Positions 1 through 37,715 of a stretch of DNA of 64,000 bases are shown here, one piece after another. Source of the DNA: a virus. The notes below the pieces were generated by a model. The model saw only the letters and a program-made list of their open reading frames with translations. It ran no database searches and was not told the origin of the DNA. Position 1 is the stretch's first letter. Each line of letters begins with the position of its first letter. The DNA is taken from IMG/VR virus record IMGVR_UViG_3300033074_002003; one strand, written 5' to 3'. The translations under genes were made by a program, and so were the position numbers.

Positions 1-254
1 ACAAGGACGGTGACATCCCGTTCTGAGGGATATATAACGGTCTTAGGTCCCCGTGACGGTCGCCAATGCGGGGCTCGGACACCAGAGCGACGGCTGCGCA
101 CCCAGCTTGATCAGGTGCATCGCGGGAAGACGCTCAGGAAGGGCACGGGTGGTGCCGCCTGCAAGGGTCGAGCGTGTCAGGCTGGGTTCAACTCCCGGCT
201 TCCCGACAAGAGCGAGCTCGTGTAAGTGATCCCGAGAGGGGGTACTATCGAGTC

Positions 255-461: not shown

Positions 462-596
462 GTACGGTGCCTCGCCGGGAGGCGCTCGGGCAGCTTCAGG
501 CCCGGGATGGGTGTGCCTACCTCAGTGAGACGGTGGGTCACCGCGAGGCACGAGATCGAGCGTGTAATCGAGTGAGTGGAAGGATATACTCTCATC

Positions 597-875
597 ATGA
601 GCAAAACCCTCGCAGACGAAATCGACCGGCTCGACCTCAACGCGAAGTCCATGGCCGAGATGGCGGAGCTCCTGGGATACACGGATCCCTGGGGACAGCT
701 CCAGTTCGACAACCGCGCGTACGCGAGTAACCTCATCAACTTCCTCAACGACAATCCCGACGCCTGCGCGGCGCTGGTCACGTGGGTGCTCGACCACGGG
801 TACACGCGTGAGGGGATGAGGCCGCAATCGGTCGAGGTCGAGAGCGACGAGGAAGAGGAAGAGGAGGACACGTGA
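597..875 (+). CDS. Small early protein (93 aa) with poly-acidic C-terminal tail (ESDEEEEEEDT)
   Basis: aggatatactctcatcATG cassette. ORF-track frame 576..875 trimmed to the internal Met after the promoter. Confidence 0.55.
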   Translation: MSKTLADEIDRLDLNAKSMAEMAELLGYTDPWGQLQFDNRAYASNLINFLNDNPDACAALVTWVLDHGYTREGMRPQSVEVESDEEEEEEDT

Positions 876-1082
876 AGATCACAGGTTCACTTCTCTGTGA
901 CTGTTGCAAGACGATTCAGGTGACGTGCCTGAAGAACCGGGACGCGAACGGGCAGTCGCTCTGCGACTCGTGCCTGCGCTCCCTCCGCAGCGGGTACCGT
1001 CCCGCGAAGTGGCGCTCGGAAGATCGTCAGAGCTCGTGACCCCGATCTCGATTCGAGATAGATTCATCTCAAGGAGCCAATC

Positions 1083-1295
1083 ATGAACATCGACGCCTTC
1101 TCCCCCGCCCGCGGTCACCTGTTCGTCAAGATGTCCGAGCTCGGTGCCGTCATCACCGCCCCCGGCACCCCCGAGGACGTGGCCGCACGCGAGCTCGTCG
1201 CCTTCGGTCGCGCCTACCGCATGCCCGGGAGCATCTCGTGCTACGCCCCGGAGCGTCGCATCGATCCCGCTCGCGAGAACCGCGTGACCCTCTGA
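1083..1295 (+). CDS. Small early protein (70 aa)
   Basis: ATG preceded by aaggagccaatc (SD-like) and gagatagattc (-10-like). Confidence 0.5.
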   Translation: MNIDAFSPARGHLFVKMSELGAVITAPGTPEDVAARELVAFGRAYRMPGSISCYAPERRIDPARENRVTL

Positions 1296-1299
1296 GCCC

Positions 1300-1327
1300 G
1301 GTGGGATAGAGTCTCATCATGGACAAC
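1300..1327 (+). promoter_or_regulatory. Extended -10 leaderless promoter (ggtgggatagagtctcatcATGgacaac)
   Basis: TGgGATAGAGT-type extended -10, then 7 nt, then ATG. Matches the repeated cassette. Confidence 0.6.
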
Positions 1328-1639
1328 ACCAACAAGTCAAGGCTTCAGATCTTCCTCGAGGAAACCTACGAGGGCCGCGTGATGGAGTACTCGGGCAGGG
1401 GAATGTACGGTAAGAAGTGCCTCGCGGTGAACCTCGAGTTCTCGCGTGACGAGGCCGCCCTGATCCTCGCGGCCGACATCATCGCGGCTTCCCACTCGAT
1501 CGCAGAGCGTGATTTGCACGAGATCGGTGATGCTGTGAAGAATACCCGGGTCGATAACCTCGGGAAGGGCAGCGTGTGTTACTGGCCCTGTGAGGCGTTC
1601 GTCGAGGACGAAGAGGAAGAGGATCTCGAGGACGCGTGA
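1319..1639 (+). CDS. Small early protein (106 aa), acidic C-terminus (EDEEEEDLEDA)
   Basis: Cassette promoter; starts MDNT. Confidence 0.6.
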   Translation: MDNTNKSRLQIFLEETYEGRVMEYSGRGMYGKKCLAVNLEFSRDEAALILAADIIAASHSIAERDLHEIGDAVKNTRVDNLGKGSVCYWPCEAFVEDEEEEDLEDA

Positions 1640-1653
1640 AATCGGCGGGGGAG

Positions 1654-1679
1654 GGTGGTAGAGTCTATCCATGGACAAC
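1654..1679 (+). promoter_or_regulatory. Extended -10 leaderless promoter (ggtggtagagtctatccATGgacaacaac)
   Basis: TGgTAGAGT then 8 nt then ATGGACAAC. Confidence 0.6.
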
Positions 1680-1985
1680 AACACTCCCTCCCCCATCGAA
1701 GTCGGCACGGGCGTCACCTTCCACTGCGGTAGCGACTGCTACCCCTACACGATCGTCGAGGTGAAGTCGCCCCGAAAGATCATCGTCCAGAGTGACAACT
1801 GGAAGCGGACGGACAAGAACGGGATCTCCGAGGACCAGACATACGAGTACATGCCCAACCCGAACGGCGAGCGGCGTGTCATCACCCTCCGGAAGAACGG
1901 GCGGTGGTGCGAGGTCGGGTCGAACGCCAGCTCGTGTCCCTACACTGTGGGCCACCGGCGGATGTACAGCGACCCCTGCAAGTAG
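1671..1985 (+). CDS. Small early protein (104 aa)
   Basis: Cassette promoter; starts MDNN. Confidence 0.6.
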   Translation: MDNNTPSPIEVGTGVTFHCGSDCYPYTIVEVKSPRKIIVQSDNWKRTDKNGISEDQTYEYMPNPNGERRVITLRKNGRWCEVGSNASSCPYTVGHRRMYSDPCK

Positions 1986-2024
1986 GCGCGTGACTCCGAT
2001 CACCGAGAAGGGTATAGTTCGATC

Positions 2025-2231
2025 ATGGACAACATCAACATCGGTGATCGCGTGACGCAGGCCCGTGCAATGGAGGGCATGCGCGAGAGTCAGAAGTACG
2101 TGGGCCTGCGCGGTGTGGTCCAGGAGATCTTCGTTGACGAGCGTGGCAACACCCACGCGTTCGTGAAGTGCGACCCTGGACAGTGGCTCGTGGAGTTCTG
2201 GGCGCCCGCCCACCTCTTCGACCGCGAATAG
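2025..2231 (+). CDS. Small early protein (68 aa), KOW/SH3-like (IGDRV...GVV)
   Basis: Cassette promoter gggtatagttcgatcATG. Followed by hairpin 2276-2305. Confidence 0.6.
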   Translation: MDNINIGDRVTQARAMEGMRESQKYVGLRGVVQEIFVDERGNTHAFVKCDPGQWLVEFWAPAHLFDRE

Positions 2232-2370
2232 TGCCTCGCGGGTGACCCGAGAGGGTCCCGGACATCGCGGGCAGGGTGTGACCCATTGGGTGAGGTGGGT
2301 CACACTCGGGTGGACGTCGGGGTCGAGTGCGTGAGTGTAGGTGAGTGAGAGGGATGGTATAGTCTTCATC

Positions 2371-2667
2371 ATGGACAAGGACATCTCTCTCTCCACCCTC
2401 GCCTCGGCTATCCTCTATGCACTTAACAACGTGCAACAGGAGGGCACCGGCTCCACACGCTTCCCGTCCTCCGAAGCCTACACCGAGTTCGACAACACCA
2501 TCGAGAGCTACGACCTCCGCCCACAGGTTAACGGTGATGGCACCGTCGACATCAACTTCTACCGCGAGGTGAACGACCTCCGCACGTGCAAAGACGGCGA
2601 TGTCTTCCGTAAGGTCTGGTGTGTCACCATGACCATGAAGGTCATCGAGGACAAGTTCGAGGAGTGA
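2371..2667 (+). CDS. Small early protein (98 aa)
   Basis: Cassette ggtatagtcttcatcATGgacaag. Trimmed from ORF 2341..2667. Confidence 0.55.
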   Translation: MDKDISLSTLASAILYALNNVQQEGTGSTRFPSSEAYTEFDNTIESYDLRPQVNGDGTVDINFYREVNDLRTCKDGDVFRKVWCVTMTMKVIEDKFEE

Positions 2668-2718
2668 CACGGGCGTGAGCGCGTGCTGGCCCGTGATCGA
2701 GATGTTATAGTCTCGATC

Positions 2719-2934
2719 ATGGACCGGCACACCAAAGACCAAATCGACAACTTCGCGTGGGACTGTGTCGTCGGCTCTGGGATGGGTCCCGAGTGGGCCG
2801 AGCTCGGTGTCGAGCCCGACCGTGACGTGCTACGTGCGCTGTCAGGCCTCCTCGGGCACCGGCTCACGGGTGAGGAACACAGCGCGTTCGTCGACGCGTG
2901 GAACAAGTGTCTCCAGGAGTGTGCCCACCCGTGA
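2719..2934 (+). CDS. Small early protein (71 aa)
   Basis: Cassette gatgttatagtctcgatcATGgaccgg. Trimmed from ORF 2683..2934. Confidence 0.55.
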   Translation: MDRHTKDQIDNFAWDCVVGSGMGPEWAELGVEPDRDVLRALSGLLGHRLTGEEHSAFVDAWNKCLQECAHP

Positions 2935-2965
2935 TAGGATGCGGGTGATGTGGTAGAGTTCGATC

Positions 2966-3355
2966 ATGGTGTGCTACCCGACGATCAGGTGCAACTGCGC
3001 AGAGCCGTTCTTGTACACACCCATCGGGTGGGACGCGGGTGACTACGTCTACATGCCGATGTGGAGCACTGTGATCGCCGCCCGCGCCCACCTGCGTCGA
3101 GACAGTATCATGACGCGTTGGGAGGCCACACGTGACGAGTTTCTCTGTCGCATCCCGAAAGGAGCGGCGCTGAGAGCACGCGATCTCTTCCCCGACGCAA
3201 AGGAGTTCTACACCATCCCCCGCGATCTCGGGACGATGGCTGAGGTGACACAGGCGGGTGCACTGCTTCGACTCATCGAGGCTCGCGACCCGTATATCAC
3301 GTGGGCAATTGCACACCTCGACGGGCGCGTACTCGTGCAAAACGTGAGAGGGTAG
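2966..3355 (+). CDS. Small early protein (129 aa)
   Basis: Cassette gtggtagagttcgatcATG. Confidence 0.55.
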   Translation: MVCYPTIRCNCAEPFLYTPIGWDAGDYVYMPMWSTVIAARAHLRRDSIMTRWEATRDEFLCRIPKGAALRARDLFPDAKEFYTIPRDLGTMAEVTQAGALLRLIEARDPYITWAIAHLDGRVLVQNVRG

Positions 3356-3396
3356 TTCCCGTGTAACGATGTGTGGGTGATGATATAGTCTCGATC

Positions 3397-3696
3397 ATGG
3401 ACAACAACCCCAAGTTCAAGTTCACCAGCAACCCCCACGCTTCGCTCAATGGCACGTCGTTCCACAACATCGAGCTACGTGCACCCATCGAGCGCCTCGT
3501 CGAGCTCTTCGGGGAACCCATCACGGGCTGCGACTCGAAGACCAAACACGAGTGGATCCTCGAGGGGTCCGACGGGTCAGTCGTCTCGCTCTACGACTAC
3601 AAATACGACGGCGCCCGTGAGGGGTACTGGCACGTGGGTGGGCGCACCGTTGGCGCGTGCAGGACCTTCGTTCTCTGGTTCTGCGACCAGGGATGA
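3397..3696 (+). CDS. Small early protein (99 aa)
   Basis: Cassette gatgatatagtctcgatcATGgacaacaac. Trimmed from ORF 3373..3696. Confidence 0.55.
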   Translation: MDNNPKFKFTSNPHASLNGTSFHNIELRAPIERLVELFGEPITGCDSKTKHEWILEGSDGSVVSLYDYKYDGAREGYWHVGGRTVGACRTFVLWFCDQG

Positions 3697-3738
3697 GAAT
3701 CTCGTGTTGATCCATGGGTAGGGTGTTATACTCTACCC

Positions 3739-4215
3739 ATGGACCCCACATACATCGACCGAGCGTACGTGTACGCACTGGACACGTGCTCGCAGGCGCT
3801 CGACCTCCTCACGGCGCACTGCTGGCACAGCATCGAACCCGACCAGCGGTGGTGGCTCGATGTGAAAGCGGGTGCTCTTCCCCCGTGGGCCAACGAAGAA
3901 GACGCCCGCTTCCGCGAGCGGTTGGAGATGTGGACGTGCGGCTTCTGTGAAGAGCTCGAGCACGGTACGTGCTTCTCGCTCGAGAGACAGTTCGCGAGCA
4001 TCGTTCGGTGTGCTGCCAGCATGGCAGACGAGAACAGGCACCTGATGCACAAGATGGCGAACGAGCTGATCGCCAGGTGCCACGCTCGGTTCGCCTGGGT
4101 GAAGAACGTGCTCGTCCCACGCGACAGGTTCGCCGGGACAGGACTCACCGAGGTGGCACAGATGAAGTCGCTGCGCCTCCAACTCGAGGGACCCGTGTCT
4201 CCCGAGAGAGAGTGA
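3739..4215 (+). CDS. Early protein (158 aa)
   Basis: Cassette gtgttatactctacccATGgacccc. Confidence 0.55.
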   Translation: MDPTYIDRAYVYALDTCSQALDLLTAHCWHSIEPDQRWWLDVKAGALPPWANEEDARFRERLEMWTCGFCEELEHGTCFSLERQFASIVRCAASMADENRHLMHKMANELIARCHARFAWVKNVLVPRDRFAGTGLTEVAQMKSLRLQLEGPVSPERE

Positions 4216-4239
4216 GATATAGTCTCGATCATGGACAAC
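4210..4239 (+). promoter_or_regulatory. Extended -10 leaderless promoter (gagtgagatatagtctcgatcATGgacaac)
   Basis: TGaGATATAGT then 7 nt then ATGGACAAC. Near-consensus copy. Confidence 0.6.
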
Positions 4240-4506
4240 ATTCCTGCCTCAGCCCGTCGCCCCATCGTCCGCATCATCGACGCGCTGACGAACGCAGAGT
4301 GCAAAATCACGTGCACGAGCGCGGAAGAGCTCGAGCTCGCCGCGAAGCTTCTAACGTCTGCTGGATGTATCCAGCACGAGCGCCGACTCCTGAACATCAT
4401 GCAGATGCTCAACATCGTGTCTGCCGAGATGAACGACATCCGTGAACAGCTCGTCGGCATCGCCCGTGCGGAGGCGAAGATGAAGGCCCGTCCCGAGGGC
4501 GCGTGA
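4231..4506 (+). CDS. Small early protein (91 aa)
   Basis: Consensus cassette; starts MDNI. Confidence 0.6.
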   Translation: MDNIPASARRPIVRIIDALTNAECKITCTSAEELELAAKLLTSAGCIQHERRLLNIMQMLNIVSAEMNDIREQLVGIARAEAKMKARPEGA

Positions 4507-4538
4507 CCCCGACTCGCGGGTGAGATAGAGTCTACTTC

Positions 4539-4904
4539 ATGGACAACATCATCGCCCTCGCGGAAAAGATCGTCAAGGCCATCCCGGGACTCCGGGACGA
4601 GACACAGGAGTTCTCGTGTGAGGACAACATTTCGTCGTTCGACGGGTTCTCTGTTTCGGAGAATCGGGACGACGAGTGGGACGTGTACCTCACTTACACT
4701 TCACCGTACGCGAAGGTCGAAGGGGCCCTCGAGGTGACCCTCGGCGAACCACACGAGTCGCACTGTCGTGGTGGGGACGACGCCTCTGACGTCTGGAAGA
4801 TCGACGGTGTCACGATCGTCCACTGTCGCGGGCGAATCGAACTCCACGGTGAGTTCGTGAAGGTCCCGAAGAGGGCCAAGAAGAAGTCCATGAAGAAGAA
4901 GTGA
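4539..4904 (+). CDS. Small early protein (121 aa), Lys-rich C-terminus (KRAKKKSMKKK)
   Basis: Cassette gtgagatagagtctacttcATGgacaac. Confidence 0.6.
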   Translation: MDNIIALAEKIVKAIPGLRDETQEFSCEDNISSFDGFSVSENRDDEWDVYLTYTSPYAKVEGALEVTLGEPHESHCRGGDDASDVWKIDGVTIVHCRGRIELHGEFVKVPKRAKKKSMKKK

Positions 4905-4945
4905 ACCCGCGTGTCGGTCTGTGGGTAGGGTGATACATTCTACCC

Positions 4946-5194
4946 ATGGACAACACCAAGACCGCCAAGTCGATCGCCTCTGTTGACGCGCAGCTCTCGA
5001 TGGCCGCCGATGCACTCTGTGATGCCCTCGAGACCCAGAACGACTTCGCCGACAACATCGAGGCCCTTCAGGACGTTACACCGTCCCAGTGGGCTGGGCA
5101 GGTTGCACGTGCGCAGGCCGAGCTCCGCGAGCGTGTCACGAAGCTGTACGAGGAGATGAACGACAAGCTCCTCGGTGGCGAGTTCGCCCAGTAA
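4946..5194 (+). CDS. Small early protein (82 aa)
   Basis: Cassette ggtgatacattctacccATGgacaac. Followed by the 91-nt structured element. Confidence 0.6.
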   Translation: MDNTKTAKSIASVDAQLSMAADALCDALETQNDFADNIEALQDVTPSQWAGQVARAQAELRERVTKLYEEMNDKLLGGEFAQ

Positions 5195-5348
5195 CTGATT
5201 CAGGAGGCACCTCACCCGTGCCTCGCAGTGACCCACGGAACAACTCTGTCCAGGTCGACAGGTAATTCCACCTTCGGCGTTCCGTGGGTCACTGCGAGGC
5301 ACGGGGATCGCGAGTGCAATGGCGTGTGCGTGAGGGTATACTCTACCC

Positions 5349-5678
5349 ATGGCCACACACCACTACTCCCAACTTCGTCCCTCCTCTCGTAAGATGATCC
5401 AGACCACCCTCTCAGAGAAGGGTGTTCCAACCAACTCAGATGGTGCACTCGACCGGACGGACTCGGATGCGTACAGTCACGCATTCTACATCATGGAGAA
5501 GTGTCCGAAGGGTCACAAGATCCTCGAGATCCGAAACGGGTCAGATGACGTATCGTTCTGGTACTACAAGACCGAAAAGGAGCTCGTGCACAAGTTCACC
5601 AGTGCACAGCACCACAACCAGTACGAGGGTGATGACGAGGACGGGGATTTCGAGGAGGAAGAGGGTGACGAGGACTGA
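5349..5678 (+). CDS. Small early protein (109 aa), acidic tail (DDEDGDFEEEEGDED)
   Basis: Cassette gagggtatactctacccATGgcc. Confidence 0.6.
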   Translation: MATHHYSQLRPSSRKMIQTTLSEKGVPTNSDGALDRTDSDAYSHAFYIMEKCPKGHKILEIRNGSDDVSFWYYKTEKELVHKFTSAQHHNQYEGDDEDGDFEEEEGDED

Positions 5679-5721
5679 GAAGTCTGTGTAGGTGGTGGTG
5701 AGGGGTGATATAGTCTTGATC

Positions 5722-6009
5722 ATGGACACACCCCTCAACATCGCCATCGAGAAGCTCAAGGCCAAGGTCGCGACCCTCGAGTTGCTCAAACCCTTCCCGG
5801 GTGCATACGACGAACTCCTCGACCACATCGAGGTCACCTGGGGACCCATGTTGGAGGACGAGGGTGACATGGCGGAGGACTTCGTCTTCGAGCTGGGTCT
5901 CGACGTGACGGACGGCATCCTACAGTTCGAGATCGAGATGGACCACTCGTGGTGGTGTTGGGACCCTATCACGAAGACTTGGTTCAATCCCGAAGATGCG
6001 AGGGTCTGA
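5722..6009 (+). CDS. Small early protein (95 aa)
   Basis: Cassette ggtgatatagtcttgatcATGgacaca. Trimmed from ORF 5692..6009. Confidence 0.55.
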   Translation: MDTPLNIAIEKLKAKVATLELLKPFPGAYDELLDHIEVTWGPMLEDEGDMAEDFVFELGLDVTDGILQFEIEMDHSWWCWDPITKTWFNPEDARV

Positions 6010-6225
6010 GAGGTACGCGTGACACGCACCGGACAGGATGGTAATGTTCTGTCCGGTGCACGACACCGAAGATTCGGGGACAGCACTCGGCGTGCAGAGA
6101 CCCGCTGGCGCCTGCGTAAGTCAACCGCGATTTTGGATTCAGCTCCATCATTCAAGGCACTCGCAGGATGGGGTCTCCCGGGAGGTTCGAATCCTCCTGT
6201 CTCCACCCGTGTATGACTGCTGACT
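6010..6225 (+). ncRNA. Promoter-less structured non-coding gap: 10-bp hairpin (6027-6058) plus tRNA-like 3' module (T-arm GGAGG-TTCGAAT-CCTCC, acceptor TGTCTCC, ACC at 6181-6207)
   Basis: This is the only >200 bp interval in the early array without a promoter cassette. It carries a canonical T-loop TTCGAAT and an ACC end. GGGGACA at 6076 is a possible 5' acceptor partner (7 bp with one G.U), which would give a 132-nt element. Confidence 0.35.
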
Positions 6226-6243
6226 GTGAGGTATACTCTACCC

Positions 6244-6480
6244 ATGGACAACAACATCTCTAAGTGGAAGATCCCTTCGTGGATGATCGCTGGCGTGCGG
6301 TGTAAGGTCGTCCGTGGGCGAAAGGTGAAGATTGGTGAAGTTGGAACTATCATCGACACCTTCACCACGGGGAACGGACACAAAGCGCGTGTCCATTTGG
6401 ATTCGACGGGTCCCATCCAGCGCGTGAACCCGCAGCTGTCCTACACGCGTATCGCAGTCCAGAACCTAGAACCTATCTAA
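6244..6480 (+). CDS. Small early protein (78 aa), KOW-like
   Basis: Cassette gaggtatactctacccATGgacaacaac. Confidence 0.6.
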   Translation: MDNNISKWKIPSWMIAGVRCKVVRGRKVKIGEVGTIIDTFTTGNGHKARVHLDSTGPIQRVNPQLSYTRIAVQNLEPI

Positions 6481-6513
6481 CACTTCACTGAACGCGTGAA
6501 TGGCCGTGGGTGG

Positions 6514-6539
6514 GGTGATATACTCTATCCATGGACAAC
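6514..6539 (+). promoter_or_regulatory. Extended -10 leaderless promoter (ggtgatatactctatccATGgacaacacc)
   Basis: TGaTATACT then 8 nt then ATGGACAAC. Confidence 0.6.
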
Positions 6540-6770
6540 ACCTGCCCCGAACTTCCGCGAAGTCCCGCTATGCCCCCATGGCTCGACGGCCTCTGTGCCA
6601 TCTGGCTCGAGTGGGATGAGGGCGTCGGACACTGCCGGGACCTCGAGCTCGAGGAGCTCTGTGCGTGCCTCGACGCCGACTGGTCGATCGACTGTGGTGA
6701 GTTCTCGGGCCACCGGCAGTGGGACGACGTGATGTCACGGTGCTCGGATCGGATCGCCTACACGAGCTGA
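6531..6770 (+). CDS. Small early protein (79 aa), Cys-rich
   Basis: Cassette promoter; starts MDNT. Confidence 0.55.
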   Translation: MDNTCPELPRSPAMPPWLDGLCAIWLEWDEGVGHCRDLELEELCACLDADWSIDCGEFSGHRQWDDVMSRCSDRIAYTS

Positions 6771-6811
6771 GGGCACGTGATGGTCTGTGGCCAGTGAGGT
6801 ATCATCTATCC

Positions 6812-7135
6812 ATGGACCAAATCGCCATCGACTCAAACTACGCCATCCTCGCGAAGGAAGTGGTCGCCAAGGAGTTTCCCGCGGCAGTCACCGCCATCGC
6901 CAACCACGGCAACTGCGAGGGATGCAACCTCTTTGACGCGGGTGAGGTCTTCTACCTCTTCACCAACCCGGGAGGCGGCAAGGACCTTCACGTCGTCGTC
7001 GACCAGGACGCCGAGGTCTACAGCTGGGACGGTGACAGCTGGAATGAGTTGGAAAACTGGATGGCTGATGGCGAGACACGGTCGTGGCTTCGCCGCCACG
7101 CCAAGAAGCACGGGTTGGTCTACACCCAAGAGTAG
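6812..7135 (+). CDS. Small early protein (107 aa)
   Basis: Cassette gaggtatcatctatccATGgaccaaatc. Trimmed from ORF 6719..7135. Confidence 0.55.
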   Translation: MDQIAIDSNYAILAKEVVAKEFPAAVTAIANHGNCEGCNLFDAGEVFYLFTNPGGGKDLHVVVDQDAEVYSWDGDSWNELENWMADGETRSWLRRHAKKHGLVYTQE

Positions 7136-7193
7136 GTCTGGGTCGCGGGTCCCATCTCGTGTATGGATGGGACCCGCGTGGTAGAGTTTACCC

Positions 7194-7442
7194 ATGGACC
7201 AAATCTACAAGCTCGCACGCAAGATCGCCCGTTGCCTCTACAGCGACTCGCACGTGCCCGTTGCGGAGTCGCTCCCCAAGATCTCCGCTGGACTCGAGAG
7301 CGACATGTCGGTGCCAGGCTCGCGCCTCCCTGACGACGGTGAGGTCGAGTTCCTCGTGTACGGGGGCGATGAGGGTTCGACCCCCGAGGAGGTGATGGCA
7401 AAGTGGCCGAAGACCTACGAAGCCATCGGGTCGTTCTTCTGA
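7194..7442 (+). CDS. Small early protein (82 aa)
   Basis: Cassette ggtagagtttacccATGgaccaaatc. Confidence 0.55.
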   Translation: MDQIYKLARKIARCLYSDSHVPVAESLPKISAGLESDMSVPGSRLPDDGEVEFLVYGGDEGSTPEEVMAKWPKTYEAIGSFF

Positions 7443-7481
7443 GCGCGTGAATGCAGGTGGGCTTCGTGGTAGAGTCTTCTC

Positions 7482-7967
7482 ATGGCAAAGAAGACCACGA
7501 AGCCCAAGGCTCCCAAGTTCCTAGCGGGCGACCGCGTGAAACTCCTCCCGTTCGAGGGCCAACCCGAGGAGTTGGGTGTCGTCATCGAGTACGAGGGAAA
7601 CAACTTGTACTGTGTTAGCGTCGACCGTCGCTTCCGCACGAAGGAAGACGATGGCCTCAGAGAGGTCGACGGTGACCAGCTCGAGGCTTCTTCCGAGCCG
7701 CTCGAGCCCGTCAAAACCAAGATCACGACCCTCTTCCGCATCTCTGCGCGGGCCGCACAGAAGCTCTTCAAGAAGGAATTCAAAGAAGCGATGGTCGATC
7801 TCGACGACGTCGATCCGCGTGACATCGACTGGTTCATCGACTCGAAGGGAAACCTCTGGACGAACGACGCCCTCGACGACCACGGGTACACGTTCTTCAA
7901 CCTCGCGACGCCGACTTTGTCGTTCGACCGTTCGGAGGTCAAGGTCCTCGACGACCTCAACGACTAA
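7482..7967 (+). CDS. Early protein (161 aa), Lys-rich N-terminus, KOW-like AGDRVKLL
   Basis: Cassette ggtagagtcttctcATG. Confidence 0.6.
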   Translation: MAKKTTKPKAPKFLAGDRVKLLPFEGQPEELGVVIEYEGNNLYCVSVDRRFRTKEDDGLREVDGDQLEASSEPLEPVKTKITTLFRISARAAQKLFKKEFKEAMVDLDDVDPRDIDWFIDSKGNLWTNDALDDHGYTFFNLATPTLSFDRSEVKVLDDLND

Positions 7968-8007
7968 GCGCGTGAACCCGAGCGGGTGAGGGTGTAGAGT
8001 CTACTTC

Positions 8008-8268
8008 ATGGACACCACACTCACCGTTGCCATCGCCAAGTTCCCCTCGACCTTCGGCCTGCGCGCCTTCCCGGGCGACACGTTCCGCGTGAGCCCCTCG
8101 GCCTCGTACATGACCGACGCGTACCGCTGGGACCGTGAGACGAACACGACAGTGCGGGTCACCCCCGTCCCGATGCTCTACACCGAGCGCCTCTGCGAGG
8201 ACGGTGTGTGGCGCGACTTCGCGAAGGGGACCACCGAGGAGCTCCTCCAGAACGTCGTGAAGCTCTGA
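8008..8268 (+). CDS. Small early protein (86 aa)
   Basis: Cassette gtgtagagtctacttcATGgacacc. Confidence 0.55.
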   Translation: MDTTLTVAIAKFPSTFGLRAFPGDTFRVSPSASYMTDAYRWDRETNTTVRVTPVPMLYTERLCEDGVWRDFAKGTTEELLQNVVKL

Positions 8269-8291
8269 TCTCAGGGAGGTAGAGTCTCACT

Positions 8292-8579
8292 ATGGTCCAC
8301 ATCTTCTACCGTACCCTCGACGCCATCTCAGAGGCCCCTGTCGCCCTCACGGTGCCGACTGACGGGCTTCGAAAAGAAGACTACGAGCTTGTTCACGTGC
8401 TCGATAACTCGGCTCCGCACCTCGAGGCGATCTACCGGATGATGAACGTCATCTCGGGGAACGAGCTCCCTGTGCGGCTCGGCATCCGAACTATGACCGT
8501 GGGTGACGTCATTGTCGACGAGGACGGGACCGTGTGGTTTGCGGGCGCGTCTGACTGGGAAGAGACGAGCTGGTTCTGA
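8292..8579 (+). CDS. Small early protein (95 aa)
   Basis: Cassette gaggtagagtctcactATG. Followed by conserved terminator hairpin 8587-8625. Confidence 0.5.
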   Translation: MVHIFYRTLDAISEAPVALTVPTDGLRKEDYELVHVLDNSAPHLEAIYRMMNVISGNELPVRLGIRTMTVGDVIVDEDGTVWFAGASDWEETSWF

Positions 8580-8586
8580 CCTCGCC

Positions 8587-8625
8587 GTGACCCGCTCGGG
8601 CCCCCACGGGCCCGAGATGGGTTCC
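8587..8625 (+). terminator. Conserved GC hairpin gtgacccgCTCGGGCCCccacGGGCCCGAGatgggttcc (copy 1)
   Basis: 9-bp stem with 4-nt loop, 8 nt after the stop at 8579. 36/39 nt identical to the copy at 9588-9626. Confidence 0.55.
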
Positions 8626-8801
8626 CATACCACCCACACGTCCCGAGTGACCCCAGCCTCCCAGAAGGGATACAACTCACCTCATGGAACTCATCTACCT
8701 CGCGGTCGGTCTCGTCGTGGTCGCCCTCCCGGGCGCGGTCATCTCCCTCGCCGCCTTCGGCCTCGAGTGACAGTGTGGGCGGGAGAGGATAGGATCTGAA
8801 C

Positions 8802-8999
8802 ATGGTCAAGAGCAACGTCTCACGCCCCGTGAAGCGCTACATCGTGCGGTTCTTTCACCAGGACATGGGCGGGTGCGAGTGCCCGTTCGAGGCCGATGAA
8901 CATGACGATGCCCGCGAGCGCAGGGACGAGATCAACGCGGGACAGTACTCTCGCATGAGCGACGCTAGCATCGTGCGTGTCTACGCGAAGGGGAAGTGA
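8802..8999 (+). CDS. Small early protein (65 aa)
   Basis: Cassette ggataggatctgaacATG. Confidence 0.5.
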   Translation: MVKSNVSRPVKRYIVRFFHQDMGGCECPFEADEHDDARERRDEINAGQYSRMSDASIVRVYAKGK

Positions 9000-9011
9000 T
9001 AGAGTCTACCC

Positions 9012-9197
9012 ATGGAAGAAATCGCTAGCAAGCCGCACGAGCACGCCTGGGGTTACGACAAGTGGGAGACCCTCTGCCACAACGGCCGTCGCATCGTGCA
9101 CCAGTGTAACGACTGCCTCGCCGTACGGGTCACCTTTCGCACCCACAACGCGGGCGACAAGGTGGTCGTCATCGACCCGCCCTACGTGAAGGACTGA
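9012..9197 (+). CDS. Small early protein (61 aa), His/Cys-rich (possible Zn binding)
   Basis: Cassette gtgatagagtctacccATGgaagaa. Confidence 0.5.
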   Translation: MEEIASKPHEHAWGYDKWETLCHNGRRIVHQCNDCLAVRVTFRTHNAGDKVVVIDPPYVKD

Positions 9198-9220
9198 ACG
9201 CGAGGGTGTAGAGTCTGGTT

Positions 9221-9574
9221 ATGGACAACAACATCGCCATCGACTTCGCGCGCCTCACCCCCGCCCAGTCCGCGCTGCTCGCCCGCATCCGCGTGTCCCT
9301 CGCCACGAACTCCCTCGCGGTGGAGCGGGCCATCACGGTCCTCTACGCGAACCAGACCACCGACGAGCGGGCGGTCTCCGCGACCAAGCACCAGAACGCC
9401 AAGGGGTTCAACTCCGCCGACGCGAGTCGGCTCTCGTACTACGCCCGCTGGGTCGGGTCGGGTCGCCACCTCACGGGTCACCACCTCGACCGTGCGCGTG
9501 CCACGGTCGGCAAGTACTGGCGCCAGCTCCTGCGCGCGGCGGTTGCGAAGGCGCAGGTGGCACAGGGCGCCTGA
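9221..9574 (+). CDS. Small early protein (117 aa)
   Basis: Cassette ggtgtagagtctggttATGgacaacaac. Followed by hairpin copy 2. Confidence 0.55.
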   Translation: MDNNIAIDFARLTPAQSALLARIRVSLATNSLAVERAITVLYANQTTDERAVSATKHQNAKGFNSADASRLSYYARWVGSGRHLTGHHLDRARATVGKYWRQLLRAAVAKAQVAQGA

Positions 9575-9587
9575 CCCGGGCCTCGCG

Positions 9588-9626
9588 GTGACCCGCTCGG
9601 GCCCTCACGGGCCCGGGATGGGTTCC
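9588..9626 (+). terminator. Conserved GC hairpin gtgacccgCTCGGGCCCtcacGGGCCCGGGatgggttcc (copy 2)
   Basis: Same element as 8587-8625, 14 nt after the stop at 9574. Confidence 0.55.
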
Positions 9627-9707
9627 ACCACCTCGGCGGGCTCGACCTCTCTGCGAGGCACGAGCCGAGAACGTGAATCCCCGTGCGCGGGAGGATAGAG
9701 TACTCTC

Positions 9708-10439
9708 ATGCCGCTCATCACCCAGAAGCATGGTTTCGATGTCGCGACCCAGCGCTACACCCGGAAGGGTGACCCCATCACGGAGCACGAGGGCCGGGTG
9801 GTCGCCCGGTACGACCTGCACCTCACCCGCAACCACTCCGACACGCTGGACTACACCGACTTCCAGACCGCCCAGGTCGTGAAGATCGTCGTGAAGCTCG
9901 ACGCTCCCCTCGCGGATCCCTACCACTACTACTCCAACCCGCTCTACCGGAAGGGCGACCCCTTCGTGGAGATCGAGGTGTTCTCCTCCCAGTACACGTG
10001 GCGATGCCCGAGCGACTTCGTGAGTGCCACGGTGGACGCCTCCCCCGAGCTCATCGCGGAGCACGAGGCCTTCCTCGCCGGTCGGCGAGCGGAGATGGCC
10101 GCTGAGGCCGCTCGGGTGGCCCAGGAGAAGCTCGAGGCCGAGAAGAAGGAGGCTGCCAAGCGAGCGGTCGCGGAGGCCCGAGAGGCCGCTCGGAAGGCTC
10201 AGGCGGAGGCCGTCCTCGCTGGGATGCCCGAGAAGGGAACCCGCGTCACGGTGTGCGGGATGAAGTATCCCGAGCCTGTGGTCGGCACGGTGTTCTGGAA
10301 GGGAGTCACGAAGTACCGCGGGAAGTGGGCCGCGAAGATCGGCGTGAAGCGCAACCCGAAGGACCGGGACGAGGACCCGATGTGGGTGGGGGACGGCGAG
10401 TACACCGTGGAGCGGGTCGTGAAGTTGGGCGCCGCGTGA
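9708..10439 (+). CDS. Early protein (243 aa) with Ala/Glu/Lys-rich coiled-coil segment
   Basis: Cassette ggaggatagagtactctcATG. Largest gene of the array. Confidence 0.6.
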   Translation: MPLITQKHGFDVATQRYTRKGDPITEHEGRVVARYDLHLTRNHSDTLDYTDFQTAQVVKIVVKLDAPLADPYHYYSNPLYRKGDPFVEIEVFSSQYTWRCPSDFVSATVDASPELIAEHEAFLAGRRAEMAAEAARVAQEKLEAEKKEAAKRAVAEAREAARKAQAEAVLAGMPEKGTRVTVCGMKYPEPVVGTVFWKGVTKYRGKWAAKIGVKRNPKDRDEDPMWVGDGEYTVERVVKLGAA

Positions 10440-10453
10440 AATCTGTGCGGGTG

Positions 10454-10479
10454 GGTGGTAGAGTCTACCCATGGACAAC
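10454..10479 (+). promoter_or_regulatory. Extended -10 leaderless promoter (ggtggtagagtctacccATGgacaacaac)
   Basis: Same cassette; last copy of the early array. Confidence 0.6.
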
Positions 10480-11443: not shown

Positions 11444-12190
11444 ATGGCAAGTGACGCGCTCATTCGCGCCCTCCTGAGGGAGATCCTCGTCGAGGGGCGG
11501 GTAGACGATGCGGCCGCTGTGTGGGCGGCGGGCGGGGGTTCGCCCGAGACGTTCAGGGACATCGTCGCGGCACAGCCGCTCAAGAGCTCGAACAAGTTCC
11601 TCGGGTGGACGGTGCGGGCGATCCTGAGAGATCCCGGGATGGGTACCGACGTCGACGCGATCGGGTTGGACGTCGTGTTCAACCTCCTGAAGGAGTTTGA
11701 GGGCGTGGTCGAGTTCCTGCCGCGGGAGAGGCGAGACATCTCGGGGTACTCGAGCTTCAAGGAGCTCTCCCACGTGGTGCTCGACGCGGCCGCCCTGAGG
11801 TCCGAAGCCCTGAGCGCCAGGGTGGGTCCCGGTGACGTTGATCGCGTCTGGGAGGGCGGCGGGTGGATCGTCGTTCGGCCCCGGACGATGGGCGCGGCGA
11901 TCAAGTACGGGAAGGGGACGAAGTGGTGCATCTCGGCGCTCCGTCACAACAAGTTCGATGACTACGACGAGTCGGGATCGGTGCACTTCTTCGCGATCGA
12001 CCGCTCGCCCCTCGCGGACGGTGACGACATGTCGAGGATCGCGGTGACAGTTGCGGTTGACGGTGATGAGGAGTTCCACGACGCCCGGGACAGGGAGATC
12101 GACGAGTCGCTCGTGGAGCTGCACCTCGGTCGCGAGGTGTGGGGCGAGATCCGTCGCGCGATCTCATCGAACCTGAAGTCCCATACTTAG
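11444..12190 (+). CDS. Hypothetical protein (249 aa), very GC-rich
   Basis: Start taken at the ATG inside the motif catacttagtgggATGg. ORF-track frame 11408..12190. Confidence 0.45.
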   Translation: MASDALIRALLREILVEGRVDDAAAVWAAGGGSPETFRDIVAAQPLKSSNKFLGWTVRAILRDPGMGTDVDAIGLDVVFNLLKEFEGVVEFLPRERRDISGYSSFKELSHVVLDAAALRSEALSARVGPGDVDRVWEGGGWIVVRPRTMGAAIKYGKGTKWCISALRHNKFDDYDESGSVHFFAIDRSPLADGDDMSRIAVTVAVDGDEEFHDARDREIDESLVELHLGREVWGEIRRAISSNLKSHT

Positions 12191-12194
12191 TGTG

Positions 12195-14021
12195 ATGGGA
12201 ATCAAAACGAGGGTTACGAGCCGCGGGATCGTGTCGTCGCTCTCTCCGGGCGAGGGCGACTCCTTTGACTGCGATGTGTCGCTCGGTACGGGCGCGATCG
12301 GTGGCGTGATCGGGAACACCTGGGTCGTGACGCCCACATCGTCGTCCGCGGGCGACCTCGCGGCGTGGAGGGAGGCCGCGGGGGCCGCCGCGCTCGTGGG
12401 CGGTCGCGTCCTCGTGAGGTCTGGGACGCTCAGCATCGCGTCCGACGTGACGAGCTCGCTGGGCGTCACTGTCGAGTTCCAGAGGGGCGCGGTCCTCGAC
12501 GTCGCGACGGGCTCTGTGGCGCTCTTCTGCGGTCCAGTCGTCGGTGGAGACATCGTGAAGGTCACGGGCGCGGGCGTCGCTCGGTGGCGCGGGCGGTCGG
12601 TGCAGTCGCTCTGGCTCGTGGGGGATTCCCTCGGCGTGGGTTCTGGCGTCCCGTTTGTGGGCGGCTGGCGCACGGGCATCGAGGCGTCCCTGCGCCGCTT
12701 CAGGTCCGATTTCGATTTTGTGGGCGACAGGATGACGCTCGCCTCTTCCTCGGCGGGAACGGGCCTCGCGTGGCACTCCTGCGTCTCGGGCGAGACCATC
12801 GGGGGCGCGACGGCGCTCGTCACCCAGCAGCTCTCGGGCTGCCTCGTGACACCGGACGCCGTCGTGGCCGTCCTCGGGACGAACGATATCGTTGGCGGGC
12901 AGACGCTCGCGCAGATGAAAGCCTCGTGGGCGTCGTACGAGTCGGCGCTCTTCTCCGCCCTTCCGAACGCCCAGCTCTTCGCCGTCGCGCCGCCTGTCTT
13001 TGTCGCGGGTTCGTCGGTGGGCGCGAACCTCTCCGCCTGGAACTCGACGCGGTCGTCGTACGCCGCCTGGCTCTCCGCGAGGTCGCTCGCCGATACCCGC
13101 CTCGTTTTCGTCGACCCCTGCGCGTCTCCTGGGATGTCGGCCGCCGAATTCCAGAGCGACGGCGTGCACTTCAACAGGCTGGGCAACGCGTCGTTCGGCG
13201 GGGCGATCGCAGACGCGATCGACACGTGGCTGGGTCCTGTGAGGAAGGGCGCGCTGCCCGTCCCGCGGATGTTCAGGCAGCGCAACGTCGCGGGTTCCGT
13301 CCTCGTCGATGCCGCGGGCGACGTGCGCGTCGTCACGGGCGCCGGGTGTGACATTCCCGCCGTCGGCGGGTTCGCTGTCGCGATTGACGTCTACCCGACG
13401 GCTCTCGGCGCGGGCCCGCTTGCGGTGCTCGCGATCGGCCCGAGGAACGCGAACCCGGCGATGTGGCTCTGCATCAGGCAGCTCGGTGCCGCGCTCGACC
13501 TCGGGGGTTACAGCGGCGCGGGGACGTGGGTCACGTCGGCGTTCTCGTCTCCGGAGGATCGCTGCCTCGTCGTGAACAAGTGGCACAGGATCGTCGCGAT
13601 CATTCACAGGGGGACAGGGTCGCTGCAGGGGTCTGCGGGCCTCTACGTGAACGGTCGCCTCGTGGGCACGATCTACGGGCTCGCGAACACGTGGCCCGCG
13701 TCGGCGCAGACGCTCTACCTGGGAAACTCTCCCGATTACGTCTCGTGTCCCGGGTACTACTCCTCGCTCCGCGTCTGGTCCGGGCCGCTCGTCCCACGGC
13801 CGGGATCGATGGCCGCCCTTCGCGCTGTGGAGGCGAACTTCTTCAACGACGAGCCCGTCGTCCCGGGCGCAACGACGTCTGTCAGGGAGTTCGACGGCGA
13901 CCTCCTCGACGCTGTGAGCGGTTCGGTGGCTGCTGGGCTCTTCAACGGTTCGACGGCGCTCGCCTCCGCGTACCCGCAGGGAACACCCCTGCGCCCCTGG
14001 GAGATCGGCGCCGATTACTGA
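12195..14021 (+). CDS. SGNH/GDSL hydrolase fused to C-terminal LamG/ConA-like domain (putative virion-associated polysaccharide esterase/depolymerase)
   Basis: LWLVGDSLGVG (GDS block), GTNDI, DGVHFN (SGNH blocks III/V). C-terminal ~200 aa is Gly/Ser-rich beta-rich, LamG-like. Starts at the second copy of catacttagtgtgATGg. The 788-aa antisense ORF is a GC artefact. Confidence 0.6.
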   Translation: MGIKTRVTSRGIVSSLSPGEGDSFDCDVSLGTGAIGGVIGNTWVVTPTSSSAGDLAAWREAAGAAALVGGRVLVRSGTLSIASDVTSSLGVTVEFQRGAVLDVATGSVALFCGPVVGGDIVKVTGAGVARWRGRSVQSLWLVGDSLGVGSGVPFVGGWRTGIEASLRRFRSDFDFVGDRMTLASSSAGTGLAWHSCVSGETIGGATALVTQQLSGCLVTPDAVVAVLGTNDIVGGQTLAQMKASWASYESALFSALPNAQLFAVAPPVFVAGSSVGANLSAWNSTRSSYAAWLSARSLADTRLVFVDPCASPGMSAAEFQSDGVHFNRLGNASFGGAIADAIDTWLGPVRKGALPVPRMFRQRNVAGSVLVDAAGDVRVVTGAGCDIPAVGGFAVAIDVYPTALGAGPLAVLAIGPRNANPAMWLCIRQLGAALDLGGYSGAGTWVTSAFSSPEDRCLVVNKWHRIVAIIHRGTGSLQGSAGLYVNGRLVGTIYGLANTWPASAQTLYLGNSPDYVSCPGYYSSLRVWSGPLVPRPGSMAALRAVEANFFNDEPVVPGATTSVREFDGDLLDAVSGSVAAGLFNGSTALASAYPQGTPLRPWEIGADY

Positions 14022-14056
14022 TCCCCTCTCTCCCTGTAAACTGCCCCCTGTGCGGA

Positions 14057-24976: not shown

Positions 24977-25414
24977 TCACTGTGTCGCCTCGACTTTCTC
25001 GATCAGTTCAAACGCTCGTGCTGCAGCACACGAGTACGGGACGGGGTGTTCGTCGCCCAAGTGCCCGCACTGTCCGATATCGGCTATGCTACAGCGAGCG
25101 CGAAATGGGCACACGGTGTGAGCTGGGATTCGACCGTCCGCTAGACGCGGTAGACTCAGCACGCGTCGCTGCCGAATTTCGGCCCGTGCGGTTGTTTCCG
25201 CTGCACCGAGCTTCACTGCAGCTCTTCTGCGTGCAGGTGTGAGATCGTAGTGATTCGCGACGCGGTGCGACTGAAACCACTCGCGCTTCATCCCGAGCCT
25301 CGCCGCGAACTCGTGAAGCTCCTCGTCGCTGTCGGCAAATAGGTGACACGACCCGCGAGAAAAAATCCCGCGCGCACCTGGGTAAATTCGCAGCTCGTCG
25401 ACCCTGACTGCCAT
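24977..25414 (-). CDS. DUF4031-like protein
   Basis: MAVRVDELR...GSCHLFADSDEELHEFAARLGMKREWFQ...HYDLTP matches my recollection of DUF4031. Confidence 0.5.
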   Translation of the reverse strand: MAVRVDELRIYPGARGIFSRGSCHLFADSDEELHEFAARLGMKREWFQSHRVANHYDLTPARRRAAVKLGAAETTARAEIRQRRVLSLPRLADGRIPAHTVCPFRARCSIADIGQCGHLGDEHPVPYSCAAARAFELIEKVEATQ

Positions 25415-36821: not shown

Positions 36822-37715
36822 TCGGAAAAGTTGACGCTACGAGAGCTGCTGGGTACTGACAGCGCGAATCTGGTGACGGAGCGCGAGTTTCGCGACCAGA
36901 ATTTTTGCAGGTATGAGAGACTGGTGATCCGCTCTCTGCGTCGCGCGGGCATCATCGGAAACATTCGCAGTGCGAACTGCAACGACTCGAACGCCCCTGA
37001 CGCTGACATGGTGGTGGGCGACGAAATCTACTACGTGGAGGTGAAAGCCTCTGATCGCGCTCGAATGGGATCCGCGTCAGTCGGATATTCCTATCTCGAG
37101 CGCGAGTTCTATTCGACTGGTCTCAACGTCGAGCTGAGCGAACTCGTTGTGTCGCTACTTGAGACTTCGTCGTCGACGCTCAAGAAATCGCTAGATCGCC
37201 TCGTGCGAGCGGTCGCGGTCGGATCGCCTGACAGGAAGCGCGTCCTCAGGGGCTTTCCGATGAGCGGATTCACCGCATCAGCGTGGTCAGGCGCGCGCGA
37301 AGCGGGACTGTTGCAACCGCTTAACTCGCAGTTCGAGGGAAGCATAGACATCATCGGTTCGCACTACGCCCGCAAAGGCGTTTCATACATCCAGGTGGGC
37401 GGCCGCGGCCTGTTCTACCTCTCTTCGAACCCGGCGAACCTACCCGTTCCGAAACTAGAGGGTACAGTCGTCCTAGAGGTTACGGTGAGCAAAGCCGGCG
37501 ATATTCCGGGTCGCGAGACGTCTCGTGCGGCGATCCGCGTGCACCCGCGCATCGAAATTTCGGGAGAATCTCCCTACACGCTCGACGATCCCGCGAGCGT
37601 CATTGCGCTCATTGCCGCGACGGAAAATGTAAATCCGCCGCAGGGGGCTGTACAATCCCCCAATGGGATCTCGAATTCTCGCGCAGGGCGTCCTGGAGCA
37701 ACTGTCAGTTCGTGA
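36819..37715 (+). CDS. PD-(D/E)XK nuclease-fold protein (tentative)
   Basis: DADMVVGDEIYYVEVKA (D...E-V-K). Confidence 0.35.
   Translation: MSEKLTLRELLGTDSANLVTEREFRDQNFCRYERLVIRSLRRAGIIGNIRSANCNDSNAPDADMVVGDEIYYVEVKASDRARMGSASVGYSYLEREFYSTGLNVELSELVVSLLETSSSTLKKSLDRLVRAVAVGSPDRKRVLRGFPMSGFTASAWSGAREAGLLQPLNSQFEGSIDIIGSHYARKGVSYIQVGGRGLFYLSSNPANLPVPKLEGTVVLEVTVSKAGDIPGRETSRAAIRVHPRIEISGESPYTLDDPASVIALIAATENVNPPQGAVQSPNGISNSRAGRPGATVSS

Follow-up and report, generated by a model that had tools for sequence, protein, structure and literature searches.

Transfer RNA (tRNA) genes of phages are usually read as codon supply or as anti-defence functions, and annotation pipelines see canonical cloverleafs only. 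The tRNA cluster of phage T4 also holds ‘species 1 and 2’ (RNA C and D), stable RNAs of ~120–140 nucleotides (nt) with tRNA-like processing, located among the tRNA genes. A bacterial Y RNA with a tRNA-like domain, YrlA, has been described (PMC4201824). The locus described here is a 132-nt RNA gene at positions 6076–6207 (+ strand) of a 64,000-nt stretch of viral DNA (IMG/VR record IMGVR_UViG_3300033074_002003; the whole stretch is referred to below as the window), which comes from a ~306-kb phage contig recurring in several metagenomes. The RNA is very probably derived from tRNA-Ala(GGC), and its gene is missed by standard detectors, yet the parts needed for RNase P cleavage, CCA addition and alanine charging are kept base for base. 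The fuller proposal, that it is an early-acting, non-decoding tRNA-Ala mimic able to accept alanine, we put at about even on the sequence evidence. Positions 6016–6207 form one complete slot of an early small-gene array, with an RNA payload of ~130 nt, as follows.

6016–6047, + strand: promoter cassette of the RNA gene, with a -35-like CGCGTGA (6016–6022), TG (6039–6040) and the -10 box TAATGT (6042–6047).
6026–6036 / 6049–6059: perfect 11-bp inverted repeat, GCACCGGACAG / CTGTCCGGTGC, whose loop is the -10 box of the 6016–6047 cassette.
6055–6075, + strand: putative 5′ leader of ~21 nt, predicted to be removed by RNase P; placed from the cassette register and G1 at 6076.
6076–6082, + strand: 5′ strand of the acceptor stem, GGGGACA, pairing 7/7 with 6198–6204, G3·U70 included.
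6083–6099, + strand: remodelled D region, gap-free to tRNA-Ala positions 8–24, with a GCAC/GUGC hairpin (6083–6086 / 6092–6095) and UCGGC loop; from covariance model alignment and minimum-free-energy fold.
6100–6108, + strand: insertion 1, 9 nt (ACCCGCTGG), between tRNA positions 24 and 25; from covariance model alignment.
6109–6117, + strand: C25, G26, 5′ strand of the anticodon stem (CCTGC), G32 and U33; CGCCTGCGT is identical to tRNA-Ala(GGC) and part of a 24-nt identical run.
6118–6155, + strand: insertion 2, 38 nt, A/U-rich and weakly structured, between U33 and G34 in the former anticodon loop.
6156–6167, + strand: relic anticodon GGC (6156–6158), A37, C38, insertion 3 (TC, 6161–6162) and the 3′ strand of the anticodon stem (GCAGG, 6163–6167).
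6168–6180, + strand: variable region, grown from 5 to 13 nt (insertion 4, 8 nt within 6171–6180); GGGTCTC at 6171–6177 is the 3′ strand of helix A (see below).
6181–6197, + strand: T arm GGAGG-TTCGAAT-CCTCC, 5 bp with a canonical T loop.
6198–6207, + strand: 3′ strand of the acceptor stem (TGTCTCC), discriminator A6205 and CC, the CC running into the next cassette (6206).

The tRNA-like signature is solid and not a product of chance. A preliminary description, made from the letters alone, had recognised the T arm at 6181–6197, the acceptor strand TGTCTCC (6198–6204) followed by A6205 and CC (6206–6207), and a complementary GGGGACA at 6076–6082 that gives a 132-nt span when closed; all are present, with 7/7 acceptor pairs (GGGGACA/TGTCTCC), 5/5 T-stem pairs (GGAGG/CCTCC), a TTCGAAT loop and A6205 as discriminator. 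The nested GCACG/CGTGC hairpin it also proposed survives only as motifs (6058–6062 and 6091–6095), whose pairing is absent from every predicted fold; CGTGC at 6091–6095 falls in the GCAC/GUGC hairpin of 6083–6095 instead. When 64-kb windows were Markov-shuffled and both strands examined, the combination of a TTCRANY-loop T arm (5 bp), 7/7 acceptor closure and NCC tail turned up in 0.015 of them. Applied to the unshuffled window, the same closure test finds a true tRNA (62037–62110), the 6076–6207 locus, a second element at 123–206 and nothing else; in ~110 kb of related phage DNA it finds only real tRNAs, one intron-containing tRNA, the two tRNA-like elements of this phage and one similar RNA on an unrelated viral contig.

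No standard tRNA closes here, as had been stated: neither ARAGORN at default settings nor Rfam (gathering threshold and E ≤ 10) calls one at the locus. Other checks returned nothing: ARAGORN -m makes no transfer-messenger RNA (tmRNA) call at default or 80–90% thresholds, the tRNA, tmRNA and tRNA-like families of Rfam give no family match over 5500–6500 (gathering or E ≤ 10), the sole related Rfam match at the locus being tRNA-Sec at 16.2 bits (E 1.4), and an exact-match search with the 22-nt 3′ module GGTTCGAATCCTCCTGTCTCCA found no copy among 185,579 species genomes (GTDB) or in IMG/VR. The departures from a canonical tRNA lie in the other half of the molecule. CCTGC/GCAGG closes a loop of 45–47 nt, not 7 nt, a 7-nt loop appearing only after in silico deletion, and in the D arm U8, A14 and G18 are G8, G14 and U18, with G19 and A21 retained (gap-free alignment to tRNA-Ala 8–24). 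The alanine identity set is complete (G1-C72, G2-C71, G3·U70, G4-C69 and A73; 6076–6082 / 6198–6205), charging itself being a prediction, and the same GGGGACA/UGUCUCC stem is used by real tRNA-Ala(UGC) genes in metagenome-assembled genomes of Eremiobacterota.

A single-sequence covariance model built from 6076–6207 was searched against ~258 kb of fetched loci rich in ordinary tRNA genes. The four best foreign matches are all tRNA-Ala (40.1, 38.1, 35.5 and 33.8 bits; top non-Ala tRNA, 29.3 bits), and two of these four (in L065 and L071) are bystanders lying outside the selection made by the DNA search pattern. The alignments place helix B of the predicted fold on the anticodon stem of tRNA-Ala and the D region without gaps. 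Four blocks then have to be removed, namely 9 nt (6100–6108), 38 nt (6118–6155), 2 nt (6161–6162) and 8 nt within 6171–6180, and the collapsed 75-mer is identical to the tRNA-Ala(GGC) of L071 at 54 of 75 positions (72%), with no gaps and a 24-nt identical run (AGAGCGCCTGCGTGGCACGCAGGA). ARAGORN at default settings reads the 75-mer as tRNA-Ala(GGC) with a perfect anticodon arm. Because of this ranking and this match, descent from tRNA-Ala(GGC), taken as a statement of identity alone, has a high probability. The suggestion of a tRNA disrupted by an insertion, or of a tRNA-like RNA, was thus right in direction, the RNA being tRNA-Ala-derived by the covariance model, and wrong about the number of insertions, which is four, two of them mutually pairing, and not one.

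RNAfold of 6076–6208 gives the acceptor stem, the GCAC-UCGGC-GUGC hairpin, a long two-part arm and the T arm. The long arm consists of helix A (6097–6103 / 6171–6177) and helix B (6111–6116 / 6162–6167), with a 45-nt loop on top. Insertions 1 and 4 are complementary: ACCC of insertion 1 and the old D-stem GAG (6097–6099) together make the 5′ strand of helix A, a perfect helix of seven contiguous Watson–Crick pairs (reached by 1.2% of shuffles) that is added beneath the old anticodon stem. The latter is itself one pair longer (a sixth pair), and six substitutions in the D region leave positions 8–11 / 17–20 with 4/4 Watson–Crick pairs, against 0/4 in two tRNA-Ala references. Nothing has been lost from the 12 acceptor and T-arm pairs, the T loop, G3·U70 or A73. 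The whole looks like a rebuilt architecture rather than erosion. The 38-nt insert has no further copies in the window and no Rfam match to a ribozyme, intron or known small RNA.

The first 11 kb of the window is an array of small genes on the + strand with a promoter cassette ahead of each gene. The cassette spans 38 nt (a CGCGTGA-like box, a 16-nt spacer, TGnTAnnnT and 6 nt, then ATGG), and since ATGG lies 6 nt past TGnTAnnnT the array mRNAs are leaderless. The interval upstream of the RNA had been called promoter-less; in fact it holds a cassette at 6016–6047 in exact array register (CGCGTGA, 16 nt, TGGTAATGT), to which a matrix derived from 19 cassettes, applied to both strands of the window, gives 13.7 bits. 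All 30 sites at or above 13.7 bits on the + strand are cassettes, and the - strand has none. The gap cassette lacks the CTACCC-ATGG leaderless start found after protein-gene cassettes, with no ATG behind it, and from the cassette register a transcript without a start codon is predicted to begin near 6054–6056. The perfect 10-bp hairpin reported in this interval does have both its arms (CACCGGACAG, 6027–6036; CTGTCCGGTG, 6049–6058), but these bracket the -10 box; the 6026–6059 repeat belongs to the promoter and not to the RNA, and inverted repeats like it are found at at least four other cassettes (2680, 3701, 4908 and 29562). A generic sigma-70 scan recovers none of the cassettes of this phage and is hence uninformative here.

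Cassette copies number ~30 (window 559–10470, plus 20006, 29562 and 33693, + strand); the small genes downstream are leaderless and mostly begin MD(N)N. In five cassettes the -10 box is flanked by a perfect inverted repeat of 7–11 bp, which in read-through RNA would hide the next start codon.

The payload of the slot is an RNA and not an open reading frame (ORF): the gap stretch is non-coding, with per-codon coding scores of -0.39 to -0.53 in all three + frames versus +0.21 to +0.74 for 24 array genes, and G+C content at third codon positions of 0.49–0.68 in the gap frames versus 0.71–0.94 in the array genes.

In the proposed pathway, transcription from the 6016–6047 cassette would start near 6055, host RNase P would cut off the ~21-nt leader at G6076, the 3′ end would be trimmed to A6205 and CCA completed by a CCA-adding enzyme, of which the phage has its own copy (28242–29543). 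Alanyl-tRNA synthetase (AlaRS) would then load the RNA with alanine, which is expected because AlaRS reads the acceptor end only and not the anticodon; the 45-nt loop and long kinked arm would preclude decoding on the ribosome. The mimic might draw off host factors directed at the acceptor/T half, as a decoy or sponge, or it might carry alanine for a use other than decoding. By analogy, and only tentatively, the phage may have repeated independently the step that created tmRNA, keeping the acceptor/T half and rebuilding the rest as a long arm, with the product serving as an early decoy of tRNA-directed defences or enzymes or in alanine delivery. In a sub-variant, an RNA ligase pathway of the phage would remove the arm, amounting to protein-dependent tRNA splicing in a bacterial virus.

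Several observations weigh against a functional mimic. Replacement of U8, A14 and G18 in the tRNA elbow may distort the L-shape looked for by RNase P, EF-Tu and the CCA-adding enzyme. At -1.7 the fold z-score is modest, the cassette at 6016–6047 is the weakest of the set and no terminator was found downstream of the RNA gene. The next cassette (CCCGTGTA) starts at 6206 and shares the terminal CC of the RNA, so that this CC says little for a CCA end being encoded. The upstream gene is present on 18 contigs, of which 10 were fetched; these offer no covariation, all 10 other copies being identical, as is the entire 5625–8232 interval. The gene is absent from two related lineages, L131, which is without window 6024–7166 (flanks of the missing segment ~83% identical), and L140, which is without 4959–6231, and the RNA gene is dispensable. 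Expression, processing and charging are predictions, and the mimic or decoy role is a hypothesis.

The breakpoints in L131 and L140 fall within cassettes; the cassettes act as recombination joints, and related contigs differ by whole slots (also L005, left of ~5625). A homologue search with the 95-amino-acid (aa) protein encoded upstream of the RNA matched only itself, and the 78-aa protein encoded downstream has one relative (97%), on a contig without the RNA. The 243-aa protein encoded at 9708–10439 has relatives in L131 (85% aa identity) and in L136, L147 and L148 (~31–34% aa identity); no homologue of the 132-nt RNA was found in the latter three, whose tRNAs are normal or group-I-interrupted. 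The distant relatives L147 and L148 have early arrays of the same kind with 11 and eight ordinary tRNA genes, respectively.

The best-surviving alternative is a decaying tRNA-Ala pseudogene left from a former tRNA array, without function and still transcribed since every slot has a cassette. The loss of U8, A14 and G18, the destroyed anticodon loop, the absence from L131 and L140, the lack of covariation among copies and the weakest promoter of the array are all in keeping with decay, as is the near absence of tRNA genes from this phage when relatives have full tRNA arrays. Decay does not account as well for what was kept and what was added: the 12 acceptor/T pairs, T loop, G3·U70 and A73 have been retained while the rest changed, the complementary insertions make a 7-bp helix that few shuffles reach and random decay builds no helices, the six D-region substitutions yield a hairpin with 4/4 Watson–Crick pairs, and the anticodon stem is longer, not eroded. 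We consider a functionless pseudogene a real possibility, though an unlikely one; were it correct, the locus would document the decay of a tRNA array and cassettes acting as recombination joints.

An interrupted but functional tRNA-Ala(GGC), from which a hairpin is excised and the halves rejoined by proteins (the Rnl1-type ligase of the phage and end-healing enzymes being candidates) to decode GCC/GCU, is doubtful. ARAGORN with introns allowed and a 93% threshold calls tRNA-Ala(GGC) at 6076–6207 with a 58-nt insert at 6110–6167, taking the upper part of helix A as the anticodon stem with loop CUGGC^AU. Excision of 6110–6167 gives a canonical CUGGCAU loop in a 74-mer that passes default thresholds, its alanine anticodon fits G3·U70/A73 (a combination found in 0/100 shuffled windows), and genes for an RNA ligase (PF09511), a metallophosphoesterase and the CCA-adding enzyme lie in the window. 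GCC accounts for 138 of 443 alanine codons in the early and middle genes sampled, and the distant relative L136 has a group-I-split tRNA. Against splicing, homology puts the ancestral anticodon stem inside the supposed intron, the stem chosen by ARAGORN is insertion sequence with a G31·G39 mismatch, and the homology alignment needs four separate blocks removed. Relaxed ARAGORN settings give 0.78 spliceable matches per shuffled window with a product passing default thresholds (0.04 per window when a 7/7 acceptor and TTCRA loop are also present). A group I intron would need a longer insert, Rfam matches neither an intron nor a ribozyme there, a bulge-helix-bulge is missing, both junctions lying at the base of helix 6111–6116 / 6162–6167 opposite a 7-nt/3-nt internal loop, and no splicing endonuclease was found among the ORFs scanned. 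As a main reading, the ARAGORN intron model was downgraded on the null test of 0.78 per shuffled window and on the homology alignment.

A miniature tmRNA, charged with alanine and entering stalled ribosomes with SmpB for rescue or tagging, is very unlikely. The GGGG start, G3·U70 and A73 are as in every tmRNA, a long helix takes the place of the anticodon arm, and many soil tmRNAs end ...GTCTCCACC. Beyond the acceptor and T arm no tmRNA-defining feature is present, however: the tmRNA mode of ARAGORN is empty even at lowered thresholds, no Rfam tmRNA family (RF00023 and the alpha, beta, cyano and mitochondrial variants) matches at E ≤ 10, the D region is a stem-loop without a GGNUUCGAC-type loop, and no pseudoknot-forming complement was noticed, with folding tools that do not predict pseudoknots. 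No frame in 6104–6207 ends in a stop, save for UAA at 6117, which has no plausible resume site before it, and the RNA is 132 nt long against the usual 250–400 nt. Identity with tmRNA was rejected on the missing ARAGORN/Rfam tmRNA matches and tag frame, so that the earlier label ‘tmRNA-like’ holds by analogy only, for the Ala-type acceptor and for the long arm replacing the anticodon arm.

Chance resemblance in a spacer, or a small protein gene (ORFs 6019–6216 / 6038–6223), is highly improbable: no curated RNA model matches and the fold z-score is modest, but every frame scores as non-coding, the combined tRNA signature is rare in shuffled windows (see above) and the collapsed sequence has 72% gap-free identity to a real tRNA-Ala. 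Phages often integrate at the 3′ ends of tRNA or tmRNA genes, attP carrying those 20–45 nt, and an attP-type copy of a host tRNA 3′ end had been listed among the candidates; it is rejected as scarcely credible, given that the tRNA-derived body is complete and includes its 5′ acceptor strand, that the 22-mer has no exact match in the species genomes or IMG/VR, that no integrase is among the ~40 window ORF products scanned and that the genome is myovirus-like and ~306 kb in size.

Non-canonical tRNA-like RNAs seem to be maintained in the lineage of this phage, because the second element is conserved with pairing-preserving changes. It lies at window 123–206 (+ strand) and has a 7/7 acceptor (CGGGAAG/CTTCCCG, with C1-G72 and A73), a T arm (CTGGG-TTCAACT-CCCGG) and a body that forms no cloverleaf, with a possible promoter at ~7–38; ARAGORN at default settings and Rfam make no call. 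In L131 it is 98% conserved between flanks that are ~92% identical, and its two T-stem substitutions there, one from U·G to C-G, the other from G-C to G·U, leave the stem paired.

A metagenome scan with GGGGACA-N(86-116)-GGTTCRANTCC-N4-GTCTCC (L012–L130) gave 120 matches, of which 111 are 3′ portions of tmRNAs of soil bacteria. These tmRNAs have a conserved internal GGGGACA ~135 nt before the end ...CGTCTCCAC. Scans of viral sequences and genomes brought up ordinary tRNA-Ala genes, together with a small number of tRNA-like RNAs of ~130 nt that are unrelated (L139, L065/L144, L092 and L097), score 25–28 bits with the covariance model and have no common inner structure; they share the acceptor because the search pattern required it. 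RNAs of 120–135 nt with a perfect acceptor/T half and a 50–60 nt domain in place of the anticodon arm lie beside or inside tRNA arrays in L139 (10856–10990), L097 (~659–785 and 798–922, - strand) and L065/L144 (two tandem copies). That of L139, an IMG/VR contig, ends in ACCA and adjoins a tRNA-Arg. No detector calls any of them, except for an Rfam tRNA match to the 660–785 copy in L097 (47.5 bits). The RNAs of L139, L097 and L065/L144 are possible analogues of the window RNA.

The ~306-kb phage is myovirus-like, with baseplate and tail genes among the window products. At the DNA level nothing among 50,697 deposited phages matches the window, and protein matches in cultured or deposited phages are distant (≤36%). 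The window also codes for a metallophosphoesterase, an HD phosphohydrolase, a deaminase and a Sir2 protein, and the genes with assigned positions include the following.

28242–29543: CCA-adding enzyme, a phage gene in the window.
29850–30620: Sir2 gene.
37663–38883: T4 Rnl1-type RNA ligase (PF09511).

Functions in RNA or tRNA handling cluster at 24977–29543, 37663–39278 and 62101–62730 (DUF4031, metallophosphoesterase, HNH endonuclease, CCA-adding enzyme, Rnl1-type RNA ligase, cytidine/dCMP-type deaminase and HD phosphohydrolase). The tRNA at 62037–62110 (- strand; Rfam, 46.7 bits) has an abnormal 8-nt anticodon loop (CCGGA-GGUUAUGU-UCCGG) and is labelled tRNA-?(Stop|Ile) by ARAGORN; suppression or quadruplet-type decoding is a possible role. 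An ordinary tRNA-Arg(UCU) lies just upstream of the window, without a cassette of its own and co-transcribed.

Within the array, a perfect 27-bp inverted repeat (5215–5241 / 5279–5305; 37-nt spacer) occupies the gap ahead of the cassette at 5311, and L131 has a similar one. A 46-nt element is present in three copies (470–515, 8580–8625 and 9581–9626), each a hairpin GCTCGGGCCC...GGGCCCGAG followed by ATGGGTTCC, and may be a terminator or processing signal. A 1.85-kb segment (12181–14026), encoding a 609-aa GDSL-lipase/LamG protein, is missing from the near-identical contigs L001–L005 and present in the more distant L131 and L137. An 863-aa protein with major-vault-protein shoulder and repeat domains and a Band 7/SPFH domain (30690–33281, + strand) and a nearby VWA-domain protein (35440–36582, + strand) are unusual in a phage.

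Among known systems, the window RNA resembles phage tRNA genes and arrays, including those of L147 and L148, with which it shares a location in an early small-gene array, the acceptor stem, T arm and discriminator, very probable descent from tRNA-Ala(GGC), and the lack of a reliably encoded CCA, so that a CCA-adding enzyme is needed. It differs in its length (132 nt versus 73–90 nt), four insertions, 45-nt anticodon loop and a D arm without U8, A14 and G18, and in failing both ARAGORN at default settings and Rfam RF00005; a promoter of its own also precedes it, in contrast to the co-transcribed tRNA-Arg nearby. Group-I-interrupted tRNAs, such as that at 4157–4443 of L136 (intron ~205 nt, RF00028, 70.5 bits; acceptor and T arm matching the tRNA-Lys of L147), likewise have extra sequence in the anticodon loop of a phage tRNA gene in an early array; the insert in the window is 38–58 nt rather than ~205 nt or more, RF00028 does not match it, and insertions are also found outside the anticodon loop.

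Bulge-helix-bulge pre-tRNAs of archaea and eukaryotes resemble the window RNA in having a short anticodon-loop insert that forms its own helix. In the window RNA, however, there are no two 3-nt bulges 4 bp apart and, on the homology alignment, the insert is not at 37/38; no splicing endonuclease is among the ORFs scanned, and the promoters are of bacterial type. In YrlA both RNA ends are within the long stem and a loop closes the acceptor-like stem, whereas the window RNA has its ends at a true acceptor stem. Both are non-coding RNAs of ~100–130 nt with a long helix and a partial likeness to tRNA (in the T and D arms), YrlA being often linked to RNA-repair genes. The window RNA has no Rfam match, and no Ro60/TROVE protein was identified in the window.

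The tRNA-like domain of tmRNA (SsrA) is also tRNA-Ala-derived, with a GGGG start, G3·U70, A73, a canonical T arm and a long helix for the anticodon arm, and the window RNA would, like it, be expected to be charged by AlaRS without decoding. Unlike tmRNA, the window RNA has no tag frame, no tmRNA-type D loop or model match and no pseudoknot that was noticed; it is one third of the length, and its ancestral anticodon stem is still recognisable. The literature searched yielded no report of tRNA-Ala mimics in phages or of short phage inserts of a non-group-I type. The locus belongs to a known kind, that of phage tRNA-derived genes and tRNA mimics, and is new as a tRNA-Ala with four insertions, two of which pair into an arm, and with its own early promoter, a combination found neither in Rfam nor in the literature searched. 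The early arrays of large phages may hide more tRNA-like RNAs, as suggested by the element at window 123–206. If functional, the RNA would be a second case, besides tmRNA, of a tRNA-Ala turned to a non-decoding use, and a tractable 130-nt model of it.

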